The notes under the pieces: model-generated
Database searches by the model: none
Seen by the model: the letters and a program-made list of their open reading frames with translations, nothing else
Told to the model about the DNA's origin: nothing
DNA from: Curvularia clavata
Taxonomy: Eukaryota
Assembly (NCBI GenBank): GCA_023920165.1
Contig: CP089280.1
Span: 1,364,001-1,428,000 of the forward strand
DNA length: 64,000 nt
Direction: 5' to 3'
Shown here: positions 16,134-44,593 of the stretch, piece by piece
Position numbering within the stretch: the first letter of the stretch is position 1
How the letters are laid out: every line of letters starts with the position of its first letter
Position numbers and translations under genes: made by a program

Positions 16134-16235
16134 AAAAAAAATGGTTGCTTCTCTTTGATTATGCGTGTCATCCTTAGTGCAGGGGCCATGCTAATCTTCT
16201 CTGTATCGTTTCAAATTGACCAAATGCCCGAAGGC
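16134..16235 (-). ncRNA. U6: U6 spliceosomal snRNA
   Basis: Minus strand GCCTTCGGGCATTTGGTCAATTTGAAACGATACAGAGAAGATTAGCATGGCCCCTGCACTAAGGATGACACGCA..TTTTTTTT. Contains the ACAGAGA box, AGC triad and ISL, a 5' GCC-TTCG-GGC hairpin, an A box TGGTCAATTTG (16222-16212) and a T-run terminator. Confidence 0.98.
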
Positions 16236-28884: not shown

Positions 28885-28984
28885 GATTAATCAGTAGGCG
28901 ACTAAAAAGTCTATGCAGCTGATCCGCATGCAAAGAGTACAAGTCTTCTCAGACTGGTGCCAGCTTGTGTCTCATCATTCAATC
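28885..28984 (-). ncRNA. Intronic box C/D snoRNA (predicted 18S guide, yeast Gm562-equivalent)
   Basis: Box C ATGATGA (28978-28972), D' CTGA (28952-28949), D CTGA (28894-28891), terminal stem GATTGA/TTAATC. The guide GCTGGCACCAG complements 18S CTGGTGCCAGC. Located inside the 5'-UTR intron 29011-28825. Confidence 0.82.
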
Positions 28985-29781: not shown

Positions 29782-31449
29782 CTATTCGTCTAACAAGTCC
29801 ATCACCAGCTGCGGAATAATCTGCACACCCTCACCGTTGATCGCGCTAATAGGCACAGCTTGAATGTTGCGCTTCCATGCGTGTTGGCGATTACTAGGAT
29901 GCGGCAGCGTGCCCTTGGCCACTCCTTGCAGATAGCTATGGAGCGACTCAAAGTTAGCTTGCGTGTCTGGCAAGTCCGCCTTTGTTGCAACAACAAACCA
30001 CGGCTTGGAAGAGATGGGTGTGGTGGTGATGAAAGGTAGCGGTTTGGGAGATGGATCCAGTTGCGGAGAGTCGAGAAGGTCGGACGCATCACTGGGCGGT
30101 GGGCTGGTTCCGGCAGGCATGTAGGTTACCATTCGACGCTCCGTTTCCGCATTCAGTTCTTTTCCGCGAAGCGTTTCGTACTCGGATACTTCACGCCAGA
30201 GCAGCTTGAGTGCCTGTACCGCGTCGCCAGCAGACAGGTCGATAACAAATGCAAGGACGGCGGCGCGTTCGATGTGACGCAGGAATCCTAGTCCAAGCCC
30301 TTTGTCCAGATGTGCGTCTTCGATTAGCCCGGGCACATCAGCAATAGTAAAGTTTTCCCGCACTTGACCATCTGACCTGCGCGACTTCACAAGAGGTCGA
30401 CCCTTGTGGTTGTCCAGTACGACGGTGCCGACATTTGGTTGAAGGGTTGTAAAGGCCCAGTTGCCGACACGCGCGCGACTGTTACTCAGAGCCCGGAGAA
30501 GCGTACTCTTGCCGGCATTAGGCAGACCAACAAGGCCCAGATCGGCAAGTATCTTGAGTTCGAGCTGTAGCGACAGCTTCAACCCTTCATCTCCCCGCGT
30601 TGCCATCTTTGGTCGCGAGTTGAAAGGCGTCATAAAGTGCGGGTTGCCCAGACCACCCATGGCGCCAGCGGCTATCAACATTGGCGTCTCCATGTGCTTG
30701 TCTAAATCCAACCACAGGGGCGCTTCGGGCTCGAGAGCAGCGAGGTGCGATCTTCGTGGCGGCGGGAGCTTAGGAAACTTGATCCTGCTCAGCTCTGAGG
30801 CTGCAGTGCCGGGATACACGAGCCATCGATCTCTTCTGTAGCCAGACTCGCCCAATTCCAAGTCGTCGTCTTCTCCGTGCTGCTCCATCTTCCAGTGCTC
30901 CTCTTCCATAATGGCCACAGGGTCATGTCTTTGCAGCTCGCGCACAATGGTTCCCACAGGTACGGTAATCAGGATGTCTGTGCCTCGCTCGCCGCCCTTG
31001 ACTTTGCCCTGGCCATTGCGCCCTCTACCAGCCTTGATCAACCGGCGCCGGGCCAGCTTGTGCAGAGATGTCTCGCCGCGGACGGCCTGTATGTATACGT
31101 TGCCGCCGCTGCCGCCATCACCGCCGTTGGCAGGGCCTTCTTCAATGTACTTTTCGCGTAGGAAGGAAACACATCCATGTCCGCCGCCCCCAGCCTCAAC
31201 TGTGAGAATGCATCGATCGGCAAATGGCGTGAGCGAGTAGTCATCGGGCGTGGGGTCCAGTCGCGAGGAGCGCCCATGTGACGGTGGGTCAGACTGCTCG
31301 GCGGCGGTCGATTTGCATCTTCGCTGTAGTGGACGTGACGAACGAAGCAGCCATCTGTGTGCAAGGGAGACGAGTTGCGCCTGGGGTACGGCGGGGTACA
31401 GAAACGGCGTCAGCGTACCGCTCAAGCAGCTGGATCGAGCGAAAGACAT
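29782..31449 (-). CDS. MTG2: Mitochondrial Obg-family GTPase
   Basis: Gly-rich Obg fold (GGGGHGCVSFLREKY..GPANGGDGGSGG), GLPNAGKS, FTTLQP, DVPGLIE, TKAD, ISA. Likely ATG at 31449. Confidence 0.92.
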   Translation of the reverse strand: MSFARSSCLSGTLTPFLYPAVPQAQLVSLAHRWLLRSSRPLQRRCKSTAAEQSDPPSHGRSSRLDPTPDDYSLTPFADRCILTVEAGGGGHGCVSFLREKYIEEGPANGGDGGSGGNVYIQAVRGETSLHKLARRRLIKAGRGRNGQGKVKGGERGTDILITVPVGTIVRELQRHDPVAIMEEEHWKMEQHGEDDDLELGESGYRRDRWLVYPGTAASELSRIKFPKLPPPRRSHLAALEPEAPLWLDLDKHMETPMLIAAGAMGGLGNPHFMTPFNSRPKMATRGDEGLKLSLQLELKILADLGLVGLPNAGKSTLLRALSNSRARVGNWAFTTLQPNVGTVVLDNHKGRPLVKSRRSDGQVRENFTIADVPGLIEDAHLDKGLGLGFLRHIERAAVLAFVIDLSAGDAVQALKLLWREVSEYETLRGKELNAETERRMVTYMPAGTSPPPSDASDLLDSPQLDPSPKPLPFITTTPISSKPWFVVATKADLPDTQANFESLHSYLQGVAKGTLPHPSNRQHAWKRNIQAVPISAINGEGVQIIPQLVMDLLDE

Positions 31450-31909
31450 GCGTTGGGGGCGTAACAGGATGCGATGTCGTCTCTGCCATTGATTTCTACA
31501 ATACGTCCTGAGACTAGCGAATAGTAGCGGCCCGATGATCTGCGCTTTGCGCCACTTGCGCAGACCCCCTTGGCACATTCGCGAGCTTCTCTACATGCGG
31601 ATATGTTCCAGTTCCAATGCTCCAATCTGAATCAGCTTCATTACCCACTCGACTGTGTGCATTGATAGGTGTCAAGAGACCTTGATGATTTCATCTTAAC
31701 CCTGCATTGATCGCGTACCAGTACTAAACGCGTATCTGCAACTACCTGCATATACACGGGTTTAGTGTATACTGGCGTGATCGGAACACTGTCAACATCT
31801 TCTCTTGTTTCAATCGATCGCGCGGCCTACGTAAAGGATTCAATCGACATAACACCTGACAACTTGCAACTCCGCCCCCAACATCAACGCCGTGCGCGCC
31901 GCCCCCATC

Positions 31910-32975
31910 ATGATCCAATGTGCCGTACTCTGCTTGGCTTCGGTCATACTCCATGTCACCAACCCCGAATGGACAGATTTCGGCACCAAGTTCGGTCAAT
32001 TTAGCAGTCTACTACATTGGTGTCTCAAATGGACGTTGTCCTTGTGGGCTCTGTGCGAGTTGAACTGGACATTGAATCGGTGGGCTGATAGGCGATGGAG
32101 TTTCACTGTTGACAAGAGTGGCTGGGATTGGAAGCGTGAGGTAGCTGTTGTCACCGGAGGTTCGGGAGGTATTGGAGCGGCTATTGTAAAGAAACTTGTT
32201 TCCCACGGCATCAGGGTCGCAGTTCTGGACGTCAATCCCCTCTCAGACGTCTTTACTAAAGGTCAGTTGACATGCATGTACCGTGTTCCCTGCTAACAAG
32301 GGCCTAGATGAGCTCGCCCTTATACGATTCTACAAGTGTGACATCACTTCACCAGACAATATCCATCAGGCTGCAGAGGCTATCCGCTCTGACCTGGGTC
32401 ATCCATCTATCCTCATCAACAATGCTGGCATCGGGAATGCGTGGAACATTCTTGACATTACCCATGAGCGCCTACAAAAGTTGTTCAACATCAATCTCCT
32501 GAGTCACTGGAGCACCGTCCAGGAGTTCCTGCCAGATATGCTTGCCAAGAAAAAGGGTCACATATTGGGCATTGGAAGCCTTTCTGCTTATGTGACATTA
32601 GCAGGTGCCGTCGACTATAGCTGCGCAAAAGCCGGTGTCCAGGCCTTTTACGAGGGATTAACCGCTGAGCTAAAGCATCGGTACAAGTGCCCCCAGATCC
32701 AGTCGTCTTGCATCAACCCGAATTGGACTAAGTCGGCCATAACATCGCACGGAGCAATCTCGGGAGGTCTAAAAAAGATGGGGGCGCGACTGATGGAAAC
32801 CGAGGACGTCGCCGAGGTCGTTGTGAACCAGATCATCTCCGTGAGGAGCGGCCACATAGCTCTTGGCCCATCAATCACCACCAGGTTCAGATCGCTGCCT
32901 ACTTGGTTGCAAGAGGTTGTCCGCGATGACCAAAGCCGCGCCGTCGTTGGCACCGGCTCAACAGGGAAAGGATAG
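31910..32975 (+). CDS. Short-chain dehydrogenase/reductase with N-terminal membrane segment
   Basis: VTGGSGGIG, NNAG, YSCAK. Intron at about 32262-32307. Start codon uncertain. Confidence 0.88.
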
Positions 32976-33713: not shown

Positions 33714-36700
33714 ATGGGTTGGTTAATAGGGAGCTTGTTTGCTTACTGCACTGCATCATTGGTTGTTGGGAGTAATGAGGCGTTGCTGAATCCACAGAGT
33801 GAGTGAGAGATAGAAGTCTGGTAGTGAAGACTGGCTAATTCTTGCCTAAGCAGATGCAAGAACATCCAATACCCACAATACTGATGCAATATTGCCAATA
33901 TTTCCGCGTCGCGAGCTGTCTTTTCGCAATGATACTAGCGTATCGGAGAAGTCGGTATATACTACGCGCACCTCATCAGTGCTTATTGCCGCTGCCGTCG
34001 CGACACCAACAGAGACGGTGCTCCCTTCGACATCAACTCTAAAGGAATACAGTTTTCCATCAAAATCTCCATCTCCGGAATCTTCATCACATACGTTACT
34101 CGAACCGAGTAGCAATGTGCCTTCCACGTCATCTGCCTTGGATAGCTCAGGGGTAGTGTCGCGTGGTACCACGAAAAGGTCGATCGCACCTCCAATCATT
34201 TCCATAATAGCTACAGCCTCAACACATGTATGGGTATCCGAGCAAGTCCATTCAGATATCTCCGGAGTCGCGTCATCAATAAACCCGTCACGATCCGCTT
34301 CGAGTTTAGCAGTGACACCGGAGCCTAAGCCGAGCCTGGGCGGTTCACTCTTGTCAACATTATTACAAGATGTAGCTTCGTCTCAAACAGCAAGCGCTCA
34401 GCTGCCAAAAATTACTTCCGGCCTCGTTTATTCGTTGTCGGATAGTCTGATAACTAATCTACTGTCGACAACACACAGCGAAACACAACAGCAATGGAAT
34501 CAAAGCACAGCCTCAAGTGCCATTTTACAACCTACGACAACACAAAATGCAGAAATTTTGGCATCAGAGTCGTCATTTGCACCATCCCCAACCGCTGTGG
34601 TGTCAAGTCTGCAAAAACAGCATGTCGAGGCACCGACTGAAACATCTAGTGCATTTTCAAATCTCGGTACAGCACTATTGATGGTTTCTAATGCTTCAAA
34701 AACTGCCAATGGTCTGCAACAGCATTTAGTGTCTAGCTTGGCCAACTGGGCGCCCCTGATATCTTCTACATCTGGTGCCAGTCGAAGCAGTGGCACTGAA
34801 GTAGCGACTTCAACAACAACCACGCTGACCAAGACCATCCCTCAGCAAACAGCTTTGGTTTCAGAGGTTGTGGAGAAACCTTTTACATCAATAACACCAG
34901 CACCGAGCAATACTTCGTCTTCCACATTTTTGGCTACGACCTATTCTGAGAAGAGTGCAGCTAATGCCCCTTGGTCATCACTTGTCTTTACCTGGGCCAA
35001 CTCCCATACTACCATCCTTTCGACGCCCATTCTGCCAGCAAAATCTGCTATACCAACAACTTCTAACATATACACGGATAGTAATATCTCCAGTGTTGTG
35101 CCTACTACACACAAAACTGGAACACCTCAATCGGCCAGTCCAAGTACTTTGGGCCCATACGCGACACCCGTCCAAGGAAATAACCTTTTCTTACCTTCTG
35201 GAATACATCCTGCTTCCGCCTCTGGTAATGAAGACATCTCTAGTAGGGCTAGGAGTAATTCATCTCCCCAGATGACGCAAACGAGGCTACAGCTTGTATC
35301 TATATCAGCACCAATCCTGTCAGCATCTCTGATGCTAACTACCATTCAAACTTCAACACCAACACGTATTGCGGAGATCGCAGAGGCACAATATGTGTCT
35401 AGTGGCATCCTTTCTACAATAACTTCTCTACCGTGTTCAAATATCTCCAAACCATTTACTGGATGGACAAATACTTCTGCACCTAAGCCAATTGCAACTG
35501 GTGCCGCTTTCATTCCACCATCTATTTCGACTGGCCTAAAAGTCAACTCGAGTACAGACCCACTTGTTATCTGGTATATGAGCCGAACATCAAGTATTTC
35601 CTCCACCAGTACATCGCCACCCGTCTCCAAATACATGGATATCAGCAGCTTTGTCACCCGAACAAGAACATCGAGTTCAGAGCCACAGTCGCAAGCAATA
35701 TTGGTAGCCAGCGATGTCAATACAGCCATAACAGCGAGTACAAATACCACTCTTCTTCCAATACACAGCCCTACTGAGACAGTAGCCGCAACACCCTCAC
35801 CTCCATTGACCACATCTGAGGCTGCCGGAGTTGCCATTGGGGGCACAGCTGGACTTCTCCTTGCGATCATCGCTGCAGTCTTTGTTGCTCGCCGCTACCA
35901 CGCAGCCCGTTCAGCAAGACAAGGAAGTGATGGGTCGTCCGGTGTATACCCTCAACTCGCCTATTTGTACGATCCTTCGCTTGGACGTGCAGAAAGTGAC
36001 AACGGCAGTGACGACGAGGCATCGACCTTCATGTCTGGGGGTGCAACGGGTCAACTACTTACACCAACAAGAAGCAGAACGCCGCCTGCTCCTCCACACA
36101 ATTCTGTGGATTTTGGATATCGTCGACTGTATAGCTCTGAAGCACGCTACAGCGACCCCGGCAACCCGTTCACAGATGTCGAGGACCCTTTTCTGGAGTG
36201 GAGGAGCAGTGACGTGATCAGTACAGCGAGCGACACGAGACTTGCTCTTGCTGCTGCCGTTGCAAGATATAGTAATGGTCCTCAGAAACCGCTCCCTCCA
36301 CTACCCAGCAACGTTTCTACACATGCTTTCCGCGACCACATCATTCCTTCTCCGACACTAAGTCCAATCACAAATGGGCATGGCTTACGGTGCAGTGTTG
36401 TAAGATCATCAAGTCTGAGCAGTGTTCAGAGTCAAAGATCACTAAGAAAACTCCATTGCTCTTCTTCATCGAATTCGGGTTCGAGAGACTATGGAAAAGG
36501 AACGAGGCAAAGTCTGACGTCTATCCACGAGACCGACAGTCATCATCGGGTGTCGGATCTGATGGAGCACGATCTTCTCTTGCCCGTTGACACACGAAGT
36601 GAAACATCAGACTCAGTGGTCGTGTATGCGTCTACACTGACATCAAAATCACTGACACAATACTCAATCCCGGCCTCCTTCACGAACAACCCAGACTGCA

Positions 36701-37173
36701 CGTCTTCGAGAGAAAACACACCACATTCAAACCCCCCACCCAACCACTCCACGCAATCTCCCACTCATTACTCCGGGCCACCACCCGTTAATTCCAATAC
36801 TACAGACGTATCCTATGCCGACTTTCCCTCACCCCCAACCGCCATCTGCACCCCCACCCACAAAGGCTGGGACGAAATAAAACGTATGTCAACCGACTAC
36901 ACAGTTCTCAGGGCTCCTCTCTCGCCACTCTCGCCCTCTTCCTTCTCACCAACTTTCCCCTCGCCGCCTCCTCCCTTGAAACAGCGCTCGCTTGTAAATC
37001 TCACACAGAAAACAAGTTTATCAGGTATCAGTACCACAGGCCAACCTAGGGGCTGGCGAGGTCATCCTTCTTTTCCTGCACCACTGAGAATCAGGACGAG
37101 GTTTGAGGAAGGTGAAAGGAAGGGGTTTGATGCGAAGAGGAAGAGTTTGGGGGATTTGAGGGGAGAGAGGTAA
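33714..37173 (+). CDS. Ser/Thr-rich single-pass membrane protein (mucin/cell-wall-sensor-like)
   Basis: Signal-like exon 33714-33798, intron 33799-33853 restoring frame, long S/T ectodomain, TM GVAIGGTAGLLLAIIAAVFVARR, cytoplasmic YPQLAYLYDP and NPF motifs. Confidence 0.8.
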
Positions 37174-38279
37174 GGATTTCACAATGGTAAGGTTGGAGAT
37201 CGAAGGAAGATGATGAGTGACGGAAATCTTTCCTGTGATAACTATACAAAGCACTTTCTTTACATATGTATTTTACCTTTTAGTACCTGCTGTGTTGCAA
37301 GGATGACTGTTTTTTAATTTGTACGGGGCCGGCGAGGAGAGCAGTGTATGATTCCCCTGTATGTATAATTATTTTCTACCTTTTCGACTGACTGACGCAA
37401 TGGAGGAGTTTTGAATTTCCCATTTTCCCTCTTGCTCATCAATACCTCTTTACTATTATACCACTTAGCATTCTTTCTCTAGGCTCATTTTTCCCTGAGT
37501 CATACGATCTGGTATTCCCAGCCATGCTCATCCCACTTCCGTGATCTTTTTCCCCTGCGTAAGTCGATTAAAGGGTATCGCAGTGCTACAATAAAACTCA
37601 TATACAAACGTTCCTTACTCGTTCTTTCAAACATCTTGCAAGCTGTGGACGAAACACAGAATCTTCACAGAATCTTCTATCCCATATCTTCTACCTCACA
37701 AACATTACATGCCTATAGTGCTACCAACTCCGCATTCGTGTACCATCGCCCAATTCCCAAGTCCCATCCCACAGCCTACTACACTAATACCACCACTATC
37801 CCACAGCCCCACTCAATCCGAACATAACCTCTGGGCATCGCGATCCCAAGATGCCGTCCCATCCCGTCCTGCAAGCCCTCTTCCTCCTTCCCCTCTTCGC
37901 ATACATGGGAAAGCTTAAACGCAACAAATTGCATTTGCCCCGCTTCGACACTCAACGCTTGACTCTCGCCCTACGGAACAAACGGCACCTACGGGCACCT
38001 CCATCCCCATTCCCATCGTCCCATCACTCCACTTACCAAGGGATGTCAGAATCAGGTTTATGTGTCCCGCCAGCCACACAGCGCGCTACTCCATCTCTGC
38101 GCCCTAGGCTCGTAGTAGTACACCCGAAGCTCCTTCTTACTTGCTTGCCGAGCGAGCGAGTTGCGCCTAAGAAAAAAGAGAGAGTTTTCAACCACCTAAA
38201 ACAGCATTTCTTCAGCTCTTTGCACTAAACTAGTCTAGTACATAGAGCCGTTGAAACCTTCTTTTACATACTTTCTCAG

Positions 38280-40430
38280 CCTCCTTCTTATCTTTCCCGC
38301 CAACAAACCCCCCGCCCCCGCGAACCCGCGCCTTACTCCTAGCGCCGCCTAAACGTCGGGAAGCATGCAGGCTTAGCTGTGTTGTCAGCCCGGTATATGG
38401 CTCCGTGGCCTACCGGATGAGGCGGGCGGGGGCGGGCTGGAGAAGAGAGGAGAATGGGGAGGGGGGAAGACGGTGAGGGGTAAGAAAGCTGTAATCGACG
38501 GAGAGAAAGGACAAAGCGAGAAATTGTGAAAGAGATTGGGAGAGGGGTAGATACATTCTACGCACGTAATCGTCAATGCCGCTAGACGGAGATACCCGCC
38601 CTTGCTCTTCACCCCTCGCAATCAGAATCCCAGGTGCATGTCTGCGGGACTATTGACTTGACCCCACTGTAACACTCTCTGCCAATGCCGATGGATGCAG
38701 TGGAGAAGAGATGGGTGGAGTTCGACTAGGATTCTTGACGGGGAACAGGAAGGGCGGATGCGGGCTAGCTAGGATGTACGTAAACTTGATGGTAGGTCCA
38801 CGGAGGTAGGAGGAAGTTTACCCCTCCATGTCGGCTTACGAGAGACATCATACTAGCAGCCATGGCGCTGGAAAAGTTGATGATGGGGAAGTATGTACGG
38901 AGATGCAAGATGCAAGACGTGAGAGCGAAAGCGAAAGCGCCAAACAAAGAGCAAAAGGAACAACAGATGCCTGGCCCCATTCTCTTCATCACGTGTGGCA
39001 AAGAGGGTGCTACCTACACCTAAGCGTCGCATGTTGGACCTTGGTTTCGTGTTCTCTTTGCTTCTTCTGGTTCTCCCCTCCCGAACTACGCAGGGTAAAA
39101 GAACAGAAGAAGGAAAAAACAAACAGCAATGAAAACCATCTCATTTGCCGGAAATAAACGCCGCTGCGAGCGAAGAAAGCGGTAGGAAGAAAGAGGGGGG
39201 AGAAAGGACCTCTAACCCTACCGATGCAGGGAGAGAAAGCAAAATACGTCGATTGCATGCATTGTGCATGCGTTGAAGGAAGGGTCGCAAGATTAGGGAA
39301 AAGAGGAAAAAGTAAGATAGCTCAAGAGCGGCCTGTACCGGGGAGTGTCTGTCTGGGGATGCATGCACATACACAAGGAGATAACGGTGAACTATCAGCA
39401 CGAGTGTCTGTGTGTGAGCGTGTGCGCACTGGAAAGACAGTTAGGCTGGGGGCAGAAACCCACATCTGGATGTGGTATGAGCCTCCGCGGCTGCATCAGA
39501 CACCCCGGTGGCAATAAATATGATGCAACATCAGGGCTTTGGAAAAAGAAAACGTGGCAAAAAGAAAGAACAGGGCGAAGAAGGAAAGATGTCATGTTAC
39601 TTTTGTTCGCCTGCTTCGTGCAGCTACTGCATTCGTGCATGGCTATTGTAGCAGGGCTGGCACAGGCCGCCGAACTGCTTTTCCGGGTAATTTTTGGCTA
39701 CCAAACTTTGTTCGGGGAGACAGGTCCCACGTCGCGTGGCGTGGCCGGAGGCGACTCCGGTATGCACGCTAAGGCTCTCACAGCCTCGCTTCACTATCCA
39801 TGTTTTTGGCAGTTCTCTCTTTTCCGGCTTGGGCAGCCCGTGTGCACACGCGGGCAAGAAGGGGTGTTCAGCCGGAATCAACCGGAGGCGCACGGGCGGT
39901 GAGATAGAAGAAAGTAAAGTTCCGAAACCAAAAAGCAATCATACACAGGACGTCATCAAGCTGTGCTCCGCAATCTCCTATGCACGAGCATGGGTCCGAC
40001 TAGATCTCATCTTGCATATGCACGTCGATGCATGCACGCACGCAGCCAGGAAGAGCACGAGGGGTCTTTGTATGCAAGAACTGATCCACTTTATTCGTTT
40101 TTCCATGTGCAGTATGCCATGACCTGACTGCTATACATCATAATGTAGCATCGTGAAATCCGGGGCTCGCGACGGTGGCCACGAGAAGCATCGGTGCTGG
40201 AAGCCATTGCTTCTTCGCCCCTGCCCTCGACTGGTCCAGAACCTCCTGGTCTTATTTCCACTGCAGAACCCGGCTTGGAACATCGCAATCGTGGTCTTGA
40301 TTTCGATGTTCCAGATTGTGAATCCATCAACGCCTAGAACCGGCTGAAACCCGCTAAACATGGCTGAATTTGCAGTTGCCGTCGGCTCCTGGCGTTCATC
40401 GCGATGAAGAGCTAACCGTTGGCCTTGAGA
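38280..40430 (+). ncRNA. TER: Candidate telomerase RNA (ends approximate; core 38785-39960)
   Basis: Template CTAACCCTA 39212-39220. TBE AGGTCC 38794-38799 / GGACCT 39206-39211. Pseudoknot 39670-39715 pairing with 39916-39924. Enclosing helix CTTGATGG 38785-38792 / TCATCAAG 39953-39960. Many long hairpins and no credible ORF. Confidence 0.72.
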
Positions 40431-40577
40431 AAAAGAAAGGAAATGGGTAAGAAAAAAGAAATTACAAGAAAAAAGAAGAAAAGTACATACCAATTGCAGT
40501 GACACGGCTCTCGCGATCTTGTTCAGTAATATCCATTCTGTCAATCGTCCCCAGATACGCATCCTCAGCCCAAACGT

Positions 40578-43127
40578 TTATGGGGCGTCGGGGCAGTCGC
40601 ACCTGTGCTTCTTGCGGTTCCACAATTCGATGAGCCACTGATGAGATGCCTCGACTTCAATAGGGCCAGGACACAGAGGAAGCTTTTGTCGGTACTGCCT
40701 CTCATACTCACGAATCAACCGATGATGGTCGATCTCATGAATCATACGCTCAATCAGCTCCTTGGTTCGTCCGCTGGTCTGGGGAATCGCATGAAGTGTA
40801 TCCTCAGCCACGGCTCTAGCTTCGTCCGTCGAAAGCTGAGCGAGCTTGTAAAAATATTGGCGGCTGTATACCTCCGAGGATGTGTCTTGGAGTGGAGTCA
40901 GACCACCTAGCTCGCTTACGAGGATCAAAGGGCGCTCAGTGTAACTCCAGGTTTGCGCATCATGGAGTGAACTGCGATACAATACCTGTATGTCGAAGAG
41001 GTGTAACTTGGTCGCGCCTACATGGGCAGCGTTCAAAAGTTCCTGCCTCAAGCCACTGGCATCTAGATTCGCATGGATGATCGGGTTTTCTGAGTCGAGG
41101 TTGATGCTCCGAGCTTCAGCCTTGGTGACGCGGACTTTAACAAATAGCGTATGTACTTGTCCTAGGTACAGCTGAGGAATCACCCGGTTTCCACACAACT
41201 CGACGACTTCGCAACCGGGTTTACTGCGGATGTCGACGTTCAAGGCAGTCAGCTCGCCGACAGGCTTGGCGCATCGGGCATTTTGCAAGATACATTTGAT
41301 GCGACTAGGAGTCGACTGATACTTGGACCAGTTGCTAGCGAATACGTTGATGCAGCAGTCCTCGGTGCAAACAGTGTCCTGAGATTCCGGCTCGCGGCGG
41401 TAGGGCAGTATTGCCGGGTTGACTCGATGGAGCTGGAGATCTGGAAAGGACTTGGAAACATCATGAAGAACATGGGCTGCGGGCGACAGTATAATGATGT
41501 GGGTACGGCCTGCCTTGAGACGTTCGACTTCAAGGGACCTCGCTATGCCAAGGATGACATCAGTCATAGACGGGTTAGGTCGAGGCGGATCCCAGACTTG
41601 GACGCCAGTATGCGCAATTGTGGAGGTGAGCTCTCGGAATATTGACTCCGTCTCTCTGATGAAGTCCCGTAGCGGGTACAGTATATCAGGCCGATTTCCG
41701 GTGACTTTCCGGTGAGTGCAATGGGTCGTGTATAGCGCCAGTCGGTCCCCTGAGCCGAGATGATACTGCGAAAAGTAAGCATGCGACAGCTGCTTTTTCC
41801 GTGCTAATGCGGCCTACCAGAGCTCCATTAACGGCTTCCAGGGATTTTTCGAGACAGGTATCAGTCACATAGTAGCTAGGGTTTACATTAGCTAGCGTTT
41901 CAAGGCTGCTTAATTCGCATTTACCCATTGTCTACCACGAAGACTACGTCTATAGTGGCATCGGGTAAAGACCTCCGATTGTGCAAAACGCCCTCAATGT
42001 CAATCGCGACTGTAACTTCCTCAATGTCCCGGGTGAGCATCTTGACATCTGAGAAGAGACGAACCGCCGCCCTCAGAGTCGTTGGTAGCGAGTCCGGCTT
42101 GCATGCACTTGCCGACTCTTGGTCGTAGTCGGTGGGTGGAGGCAAGTGCTTTGTGAGTTGGTTCATGATCCCTTTGAATTTTTCTCCGCTGATGTTTTTA
42201 GTGTGATTAAGAATTCAGAGCGGTCTTTACTCACTCGCGAGCATTCCTTGCCAAATAAGCTACCAGGGCCTCTTCGTTTACCTCTTCAGTAGTCGAATTT
42301 CTCTCCGCCTCGATGACAGCTCCAGGCGTTGCAGTTGCGGTTGCGGTTGCAGAAAGAGGATCAGGTGTGTTACCAGTGCTTACATTCGTGTCCCCTGTGC
42401 CCTGGCGGCGCAACAAAGGCAGACTACTTGCAAGGAGCTTCAACTTACTTGATTTGCGCGGTCTTGACTGCTTGTTTTTCTCTTCTTGAATATGGGATGC
42501 ACCCTCAGAAGCCTCTTGAGTGCTCACGGGCTCAGGACTCTTTGTGAGTCCAGACAATCCTGGCGCGTATGCGGGCTCAGCCAGAGGCACATCTGACAGA
42601 GGCCAAGGCACAGGTTTCGAGTAACATTTTGGGGATTTATCACCTCTCTCGTCTTGACCGGTATCGCGTGGATACGTCATGCCGGCTTCGAAGCTTGATC
42701 CTGATGCTGTTGAGCGGCTATTTCTGTTCTTTGGGATGGTCAGAGGATAATGGCTCGGGGTACGGCTGATGAGCGGTAGCGCTGCGGTCCATGACCGTGG
42801 TGTTTTGAGCGGATGCGCCCAGTCAAAGAAGGACACATCGAGTTCATCATTGGGCGGTAGCTCCTAGATATCGCTCTTGATTTCGTCGATGATATCGTCC
42901 AATGGGCCAAACACGTACTGATCGCCAATTGAGCTGTGAGTAGACTTACGAAGTATGCGTCGGCGGAACGTCGTCTTGCGCAGCTTCTTTTGTATGTGCA
43001 GCGGCGATGGACAGAGGTGAGTGTGGGGAAACAAGAGGCTGCCAGTGGTCGTTGTCGCAACCATTGTAAGGTCGCCAATGTGAGCAAACGGAGGCTCAGT
43101 CACCGCACGCAGGGAACGCATTCTCAC
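40578..43127 (-). CDS. Multi-exon hypothetical protein with a vWA-like segment; in-frame TAG at 42866-42864
   Basis: Consecutive minus-strand ORFs linked by splice signals. IDVVFVVDN and HIIILSP strands resemble vWA beta-strands. Exon structure not fully resolved. Confidence 0.6.
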
Positions 43128-43476: not shown

Positions 43477-44593
43477 CTAGACCTCAGCGGTTCGAGCAGC
43501 AGCCATTTCTAGGTGCATCTTCATGCTCTCCTGCATTTCTTCGTCGGCTTCACGGAAGCGTATCTGTGAAAAATAAGTGCCTAGTACTTTGAGGTTGCAT
43601 CAGTGGAGAGGGCTTACTATGTCTTCCCCAGCGCCAGTACCGTATAGTACAGGCTCGGATAGACTAGCTTTGACTGCTTTTCTCACACGCTCCTCCCACA
43701 CACCCTCCCAATTCCACTCGCCTGGGCGTCGATTAGGCCCTAGTGCATTGGCACTCTCGGACTTGTCGACTACTAACGGCTCTGGGCTGGGGGATGCGGA
43801 GGGAGAACGCTGAGCGCGCAGAATAGGAGCACGGTGCGCGCGCCAGGCGTGATAGGCACCTGGATTGGCAGCGGCCTCGAGCGGAAGCGAGTCCAATATC
43901 GACTCATCACTGAAAGTGGAGCGAATGTACTCTAGCATGCGCACAATGGAGATTTCCTCGGTCGGGCAGGAGGCACCATGAGCACCCGGAGTGACATGCA
44001 AGTCTGAAGGTGCAGGACTAGCAGGGCCAGATTCACTGGCATGGCGCGAGTCTGGCACCGACTGTCGAGTTCGCCCGAACCAGTGTGGGAAGCCGTGTCG
44101 CAGGCTGAAGCCGCCGGGTGGCAGACGCTCTTCATCCGTGGCACTTACGGTGTCGGACTCAGCGGCGCCAGTCGTGTAGGTATACGTGGTAAGCGGCGTG
44201 AGCAAGGGGTGAAAGACATCGGTGGAAAAGGTCACGAGGGGGGGTACAGCGGGATAGCTGGGTGGGAAAGAAATTTGGAAGCGTAATACGGCAGGCGCAT
44301 ATGGTCCTATCAAAAGGTGAACAAGGCCAATCTAGATGGGCAAGAAGCACAAGGCAGTCGCTTAGCCCTACGGAACACCCTACCTCTTCGCACGAAGATC
44401 ACACCGACCCACAGTGATGGGTCGCCAGGCGTGATGCTCAGGAAAACGCCATCCAGTTGCGCATAGCGCAGACGGGAGCTGTGCAAAGTTAGGTTGCGCT
44501 AGCAGGAGCGTGTGGCCTGCAAACGTACAACTCTGTGAGGAGATGCTGTCTCCGGAAGGACGGGAGGGCCGACGCAGAACCAGACAGCGGCAT
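43477..44593 (-). CDS. Ubiquitin E2-variant protein, FTS/AKTIP-like (FHF complex)
   Basis: Spliced MPLSGSASALPSFRRQHLLTEFSRLR..LWVGVIFVRRGPYAPAVLRFQISFPPSYPAVPPLVTFSTDVFHPL. No catalytic Cys is evident. Three introns. Confidence 0.8.

Follow-up and report, generated by a model that had tools for sequence, protein, structure and literature searches.

The Dothideomycete M. graminicola is among the fungi for which a telomerase RNA (TER) has been described. It is included in the 73 Pezizomycotina TERs reported in 2013 (PMC3592445), and our literature searches, which included five genus names and left the species table of that report uncovered, returned no paper dedicated to the telomerase RNA of Dothideomycetes or Pleosporales. 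For N. crassa, the accessible portion of the same report describes a TER core that spans nt 225-1515, a telomerase that also requires the P6/P6.1 element, and a helix called PK2.1 in the downstream loop of the pseudoknot (PMC3592445). Ascomycete TERs are described in the available text of PMC9564094 as independent, snRNA-like Pol II transcripts, and the TER of U. maydis is described there as being cut from the 3' UTR of an mRNA. Flexible use of the template was recently reported for human telomerase in the available text of PMC13252387.

Here we report a locus that is probably the TER gene of this fungus, encoding a telomerase RNA of the Pezizomycotina type. It lies within a window of 64,000 nucleotides, by which we mean the whole stretch of DNA that was analysed and to which all positions below refer unless a contig is named. 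The putative TER occupies the gap between a + strand gene, which ends at 37173, and a convergent one with its coding end at 40578, and would be a non-coding Pol II transcript of the + strand of about 1.5-1.7 kb. Knowledge of this class goes back to 2013; the locus would probably add a member to it. The original prediction had proposed a core with template, boundary helix, pseudoknot and enclosing helix, and all 11 of the 11 sequence segments that it quoted were found in place. Its claim of a TER gene holds up as the best explanation and is supported by the TTAGGG telomeres, the TERT gene, the single-copy locus, the conserved 5' half of the pseudoknot and the lack of a better locus among the template sites tested under the strict descriptor, but identity is unproven, and the registers of the helices are less secure than had been drawn. 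Of ten defining features of Pezizomycotina TERs, four are present (the template; a single-copy, intergenic and non-coding locus; the pseudoknot; and the enclosing helix), and none of the ten failed outright. The features are as follows.

33850..37173, + strand: upstream neighbour, a Ser/Thr-rich predicted membrane protein (fungal hypothetical clusters at 0.94)
38557..38640, + strand: conserved block that contains a CACGT motif and may be the promoter or the 5' end
38785..39960, + strand: putative template-pseudoknot core, 1176 nt, with segments read at their coordinates
38785..38793, + strand: 5' strand of the core-enclosing helix, pairing with 39952-39960 (7 Watson-Crick and 2 GU pairs)
38794..38799, + strand: 5' strand of the putative template-boundary helix, pairing with 39206-39211 through six Watson-Crick pairs and closing a 406-nt arm
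39206..39211, + strand: 3' strand of the putative template-boundary helix, abutting the template
39212..39220, + strand: putative template CUAACCCUA, a 3-nt alignment region plus six copied nucleotides, with the predicted product GGTTAG
39221..39222, + strand: CC directly 3' of the template, which may provide a second alignment register
39321..39902, + strand: open frame of 193 codons over the pseudoknot, not a conserved protein
39542..39590, + strand: A-rich tract, at or just before which the X5 and X13 contigs end
39670..39723, + strand: 5' half of the pseudoknot, with two alternative registers of stem 1 and the stem-2 5' strand at 39704-09
39724..39913, + strand: structured insertion (by folding z-score) in the downstream pseudoknot loop
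39914..39934, + strand: 3' strand of stem 2 (AAAGUU at 39916-21) with alternative distal pairings
39952..39960, + strand: 3' strand of the core-enclosing helix, inside the contigs of the X18 relative
39992..40087, + strand: CR4/5 candidate 2, drawn by hand (P5 39992-96/40083-87, P6 40003-08/40061-66)
40089..40117, + strand: candidate 3' end, a pyrimidine-rich Sm-like tract (40089-40104) and two possible 5' splice sites
40166..40199, + strand: CR4/5 candidate 1 (4-bp P6, junction A40186, 4-bp P6.1, UCGG loop)
40578..41813, - strand: convergent downstream neighbour, last coding exon of a Pleosporales protein

A genome with TTAGGG telomeres and a TERT gene should encode a TER with a TTAGGG-type template. 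The assembly consists of 8 contigs and carries TTAGGG arrays at contig ends (among the 100 listed of 214 24-mer matches), so that the telomere repeat is the one that the original prediction presupposed, and a TERT RNA-binding domain is found at one locus in the genome (E 5e-28); a TER of this type is thus expected somewhere in the genome. The region 38300-40300 is single-copy. Homolog alignments of the convergent neighbour halt at or above 40550 in 100 of 100 homologs, the best named ones coming from Exserohilum (65%) and Alternaria (62%) and the named ones being Pleosporales, while the upstream neighbour returned no Pfam match. An Rfam search of the window gave two hits above the gathering threshold, U6 and one snoRNA, and none at the TER locus. 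Counting against the prediction, there is no Rfam telomerase match even at E 10, and the six hits up to that threshold in 37800-40800 are due to chance. The two gathering hits are a U6 snRNA gene at 16136-16235 (-; RF00026, 92 bits) and a C/D-box snoRNA like Afu_190 at 28890-28980 (-; RF01498, 42 bits). The window also encodes an Obg-family GTPase (29782-31590, -), a short-chain dehydrogenase (32271-32975, +) and a UQ_con-like protein (43600-44331, -).

If the locus works as described for N. crassa and Aspergillus, the enclosing helix would join template and pseudoknot on TERT, and the TAG at the telomere's 3' end would pair with the 3' CUA of the template. TERT would then copy six bases (GGTTAG), halt at the boundary helix and realign. 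In the pseudoknot, a U tract may engage the A-U pairs of stem 2 in base triples. The RNA-binding domain of TERT would be bound by a P6/P6.1 element located 3' of the core, and spliceosomal cleavage beside a U-rich tract would make the 3' end.

The elements of this core are unequally secure. As had been claimed, the template exceeds one repeat and is complementary to the genome's own TTAGGG. The six Watson-Crick pairs of the boundary helix can form as predicted, but their probability is 0 in a free fold of the core, in which the template is mostly paired. Free folding over such long range, without TERT or pseudoknots, is unreliable, yet it still counts against the boundary helix as drawn. Forcing the originally proposed model onto the core costs 19 kcal/mol of 394, the boundary arm (38780-39225) folds no better than shuffles (z -0.5), and a 6-bp partner of the boundary type within 600 nt has a chance of about 40% at any position (Markov null, 40-44%). 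The enclosing helix, which sits 1 nt from the boundary helix, had been given as 38785-92 with 39953-60; these segments do pair, but through seven Watson-Crick pairs plus G38792-U39953 rather than Watson-Crick pairs throughout. Seven of its pairs have probabilities of 0.91-1.0, but they form the ends of the folded fragment. A possible outer clamp of 38599-38610 with 40050-40063 (7 + 4 Watson-Crick pairs) could be a second enclosing helix, and both of its blocks are retained in the X18 relative introduced below. We rejected an 11-bp helix of 39573-83 with 40210-20, which crosses the enclosing helix and by our estimate is within chance for 2.2 kb.

Both stems of an H-type pseudoknot with a U-rich loop and an A-U-rich stem 2 can form at the locus, which is one of two such sites on the + strand of the window. 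Stem 1 had been placed at 39670-75/39710-15. This pairing is possible, but an Aspergillus-like register at 39675-86/39712-23, in which 11 of 12 positions pair (four as GU), folds better, with a probability of 0.81 versus 0 in the whole-core fold. Local folding also favours this longer stem, which grows further in the hairpin state. U tracts lie at 39679-82 and 39691-95, and the junction CUUUGUUCG also occurs in the TERs of A. fumigatus, N. fischeri and A. clavatus. Both registers share stem 2 (39704-09 with 39916-21), whose distal part could pair 39922-24 with 39684-86 or 39928-34 with 39691-97. The segments of the predicted stem 2 and of the hairpin inserted in the pseudoknot are present, but G39686 had been counted both in the CGG of stem 2 and in the GGUA/UACC hairpin, so that one of them loses a pair. 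The domain 39660-39940 beats shuffles on the + strand only (z -2.0 vs +0.4 on the - strand; 40 shuffles), and the loop region 39716-39915 behaves alike (z -2.2 for the + strand versus -0.4 for the - strand, again with 40 shuffles).

How often such a layout arises by chance depends on how strictly it is defined. The template 9-mer has 416 copies in the genome, telomeres included. Per template site, the full layout is expected at 3.0e-3 (relaxed) or 1.7e-4 (strict) under a genome-like Markov null and at 9.3e-3 or 4.8e-4 under a null with the composition of the locus itself. For a test on real sites, three patterns covering some permutations of the template yielded 190 sites, six of which were dropped (three telomere ends, one site near an end, the TER locus itself and one duplicate); 161 of the remaining 184 were used and 23 left out. 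Including incidental sites and a few duplicates from overlapping loci, 172 sites were evaluated, and one was skipped for its short context. Three of the 172 pass the strict four-helix descriptor, namely the TER locus and two AT-rich repeats, and five pass the relaxed one; the other survivors of either descriptor are repeats of 20-27% GC with A-U helices. A loose descriptor that allows G-U pairs and 5-bp stems and would accept Aspergillus TERs is passed by 26 of the 172 sites, and by summed helix energy the TER locus ranks 8th of 172. In a second set, comprising 60 of the 61 other sites with a U tract and CTTTGTYCG, the TER locus alone passes (1 of 25 template-like sites). The layout exceeds chance only in its strict form and alone does not prove identity, and because the descriptors were drawn up with the locus already in view, these results are support and not proof.

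Regarding a better TER locus elsewhere, the strict test yields no better site among the 172 that is not a repeat, but by energy an intergenic site, L208 (C2:1883073-1885983, -; template at 752 of the minus strand), ranks just above the TER locus with short stems, i.e., a 7-bp stem 1, a seven-U loop and a 6-bp stem 2, and is a possible competitor. Among the seven sites above the TER locus by energy, four overlap frames of at least 200 aa, another belongs to a repeat that recurs at 17 other fetched loci, and L215 extends into an apparent coding gene. We also rejected a site with an Aspergillus-like motif at C2:3770426/3770802 (L038), which lies antisense within a coding gene with the motif in the intron of that gene and fails both the boundary and the pseudoknot tests; by eye, the overlapping gene looks like a GH18 chitinase. 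As a separate observation, a repeated element (L143, L124, L147, L157 and L167; 17 other loci match) has TAACCCTAA at a fixed position.

Sequence conservation in relatives was seen at two places. The 193-codon frame over the pseudoknot has a single match among 1.84 billion protein representatives, P0101 (71% over 100 residues), a singleton called as a gene on a contig of 2.2 kb. P0101 matches one window frame over 39575-39616 and again over 39833-39847 and 39854-39904, and another frame over 39654-39812, where 53 of 53 codons are identical in a comparison at codon level that leaves silent positions invisible and the evolutionary distance of the relative undefined. Among its other 74 residues, 36 are in identical runs of five or more. 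As the 53 identical codons are flanked by frame shifts on both sides, it is the DNA that is conserved and not a protein. That a small protein-coding gene at 39321-39902 explains the conservation is thus highly improbable: an ATG-started frame of 179 codons does exist and one protein matches it, but that sole match spans two window frames with two frameshifts and is itself a singleton call. Stem 1, the two U tracts and the stem-2 5' strand all fall within the invariant run, which is the strongest independent support for the locus. The conservation that the original prediction had called for in relatives was thus found for the 5' half of the pseudoknot.

The second place is the 3' part of the core and the sequence beyond it. 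Contigs of a relative in the run X18 cover 39871-40043 with 15 substitutions and one gap and 39945-40112 with seven substitutions and a 12-nt insertion at 40049-51, amounting to about 91-96% identity over 39871-40112 (about 91% for the contig that covers 39914..39934), and further upstream only blocks of 20-40 nt are kept among the matches listed. Short blocks kept in the diverged X18 organism upstream of the core are 37974-37994, 38383-38422 and 38557-38640, and the diverged contig aligns at 38580-38610 with similar loose ends. Other searches were negative within their scope. A pattern scan of metagenomes gave 27 hits, all by chance (0 of 27 with an upstream template or a stem-2 partner, and no BLAST match), scans of prokaryote genomes and of viruses gave two hits with no true homolog among them and 0 hits, respectively, and a scan of prokaryote genomes for the neighbouring proteins confirmed 0 of 40 candidates. 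Homolog searches found 0 of 2 candidates for a minus-strand frame over the template and no Atlas hit for a frame at 37851-38225. The corresponding 125-codon frame (37851-38228, +) has lost 15 nt in frame in two other strains and is probably no gene.

A TER of this class would be a single non-polyadenylated RNA of about 1.6-2.4 kb. Possible traces of transcription were sought in four of 19 runs, all consisting of unstranded contigs without transcript ends; the RNA status of X5 and X13, from two studies, is a guess, and X19 is recorded as a metatranscriptome. RNA-like contigs that come in from the upstream side stop at 39541 in X5 (depth 139) and at 39499 in X13 (depth 34), and both runs have only pieces of depth 2.5-2.8 over 39725-39998 before contigs resume at 40086 (X5) and 40105 (X13). 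The gaps at 39542-39724 and around 40000-40085 are not evidence of absence. X19 contributes a single piece of 197 nt at 38882-39075. These contigs weakly hint at transcription across the locus. Their stop at the A-rich tract may reflect internal oligo-dT priming on a longer, non-polyadenylated + strand RNA, and it fits a polyadenylated transcript that ends there equally well.

The latter possibility leads to an account in which either the upstream mRNA with a greatly extended 3' end or an ordinary polyadenylated lncRNA (~37260-39540) meets the 3' UTR of the convergent gene, the layout is due to chance and the TER lies elsewhere. It would explain why contigs drop after 39499/39541 and resume at 40086/40105, it gains from the many sites that pass loose descriptors and from the absence of the boundary helix in the free fold, and several permutations of the template as well as the 23 listed sites stood outside the site test. 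We nevertheless judge it unlikely: the best-conserved stretches (39654-39812 and 39945-40112) lie beyond the contig end, the stop falls where internal oligo-dT priming would be expected to end coverage, and the strict test offers no better TER candidate among 172 sites.

The same data bear on where the RNA would begin. The X5 contig at 37263-39541 has, at depth 139, ten times the depth of the upstream gene and is separated from it by a break at 37076-37262, hinting at a separate abundant transcript of either strand over this interval. One X13 contig, on the other hand, runs unbroken from the upstream gene through the template. Strain differences number 31 sites at 37295-37770 and are sparse from 37771 on (at least six up to 38848), a pattern suggestive of constraint at some distance upstream from the core. 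As a sub-case of the TER-gene explanation, the mature RNA might be cut from a longer transcript that starts far upstream. The continuous X13 contig, the scarcity of strain differences from 37771 on and the U. maydis precedent (PMC9564094) speak for it. Yet a contig across two genes does not show a single transcript, the X5 break comes with the tenfold step in depth, a promoter-like conserved block lies at 38557-38640, and ascomycete TERs are, in the accessible part of the same source, independent snRNA-like transcripts, so that we consider a far-upstream start quite improbable.

The 3' region of the putative TER gene, in which the original prediction had placed neither CR4/5 nor the 3' end, holds competing candidates for these two features, which with the core define the family. 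CR4/5 candidate 1, which has the P6/P6.1 shape of the Aspergillus element and lies 200 nt downstream of the core, is the sole P6.1-like match in 38300-41000 against a background of 3.3% per 600 nt, and its P5 is uncertain. Candidate 2 has a 4-bp hairpin (40067-78) with a UAUG loop and lacks the junction A; it competes with a stem of 40003-18 with 40071-86 in a region that is conserved in the X18 relative. The interval 39950-40110 folds no better than shuffles (z +1.1), and no 5-nt NUNGN loop on a 4-bp stem was found in 39900-40500. A possible 3' end follows the Sm-like tract, where ATGTGC (40105) and GTATGC (40112) are possible 5' splice sites, and no AUAAGU or AUACGU 5' splice site is present on the + strand in 39960-41200. 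The spacing to a branch motif is atypical, being either 12-19 nt (the nearest, too short) or about 300 nt for CTAAC at 40412, which is followed by the first pyrimidine-AG about 85 nt later. The best P6.1 candidate and the best Sm-like tract cannot both be correctly assigned as drawn, because the former is situated 3' of the latter: an RNA ending near 40105 would not contain candidate 1, and a CR4/5 at candidate 1 would have no splice signal downstream.

Twelve telomere ends were read, nine of them picked by a genome-wide pattern (arrays breaking after CCCTA), and the four unread ends were without a match. TAGGG units stand at the proximal junction of five ends (C2 left and C3, C4, C5 and C6 right). 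They also surround an interstitial telomeric remnant at C2:1138100 (L270). The locus reads CCCTACC across the 3' edge of the template, and a CC 3' flank is shared by 4 of 55 other comparable template sites. With this sequence, a primer that has paused at GGGT might pair again over 3 bp and be extended by TAGGG. The same units could arise from one-base slippage on any template, from old degenerate repeats or from errors in long reads, so the observation has modest weight. Arrays starting at TAGGG do not discriminate between templates and were left unused. Of two apparent one-base read-through variants at telomeres, the one at the right end of C5 is sequencing adapter and was discarded, and the one at the left end of C2, seen once where the contig end is ragged, carries almost no weight. 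The ~50 nt outside the telomere array at most of the ends read we take to resemble a long-read sequencing adapter or barcode.

These peculiarities could be combined into a variant Pleosporales TER with a second template register, a 3' end made without AUAAGU, a non-canonical CR4/5 and maybe a mature RNA cut from a longer upstream transcript. We regard this combination as doubtful; if true, the second register would explain the TAGGG units at the five telomere junctions. As for the TER gene in general, TER genes escape gene finders, and at this locus there is no Rfam match either. Locating it would complete the telomerase of this genome and could seed a search for TERs across Pleosporales. Of greater interest are the absence of the AUAAGU signal and the possible connection of the template flank with the telomere variants.

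The locus both resembles and departs from described fungal TERs, as far as the accessible portions of the reports cover them. Like the TERs matured by spliceosomal cleavage, it has a U-rich tract followed by a hexamer, either the A-starting ATGTGC or the canonical GTATGC, and CTAAC at 40412 with its ~85-nt spacing recalls the long distance from branch point to 3' site in S. pombe, but neither hexamer fits AUA(A/C)GU, and the branch spacing of 12-19 or ~300 nt differs from theirs (PMC4299874). Compared with Aspergillus and Penicillium TERs (PMC3603654), it lacks AUAAGU/AUACGU with a branch motif ~30 nt later, and its 3' region is much shorter; its putative boundary helix abuts the template, whereas that of the Aspergilli is mostly 2 nt away, and has 6 bp instead of ~8. 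It shares with these TERs a stem 1 ending in CGG/UCG, a five-U tract and the junction CUUUGUUCG, a purine-rich linker ahead of the stem-2 A tract, and 3' of the core a hairpin composed of A, 4 bp, a U..G tetraloop and G (PMC3603654). Their pseudoknot alignment (CGG, five U, ~16 nt ending in CUUUGU, then UCG) fits the alternative stem-1 register here, and both the CACGT-type upstream box (CACGTG in Aspergillus promoters) and the pyrimidine tract near the proposed 3' end have Aspergillus counterparts in the accessible text (PMC3603654). In comparison with N. crassa TER (PMC3592445), the template register is CUAACCCUA instead of UAACCCUAA, the boundary arm measures 406 nt instead of ~180 and the arm from template to pseudoknot ~450 nt instead of ~830, and the 4-bp stem with a 5-nt NUNGN loop of N. 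crassa is absent from 39900-40500. Both nevertheless share an enclosing helix, a boundary helix (putative here), a 9-nt template of 1.5 repeats and a two-stem pseudoknot in the same order. In both, the downstream loop of the pseudoknot holds a structured insertion, the telomere repeat is TTAGGG and the core measures ~1.2 kb (PMC3592445).
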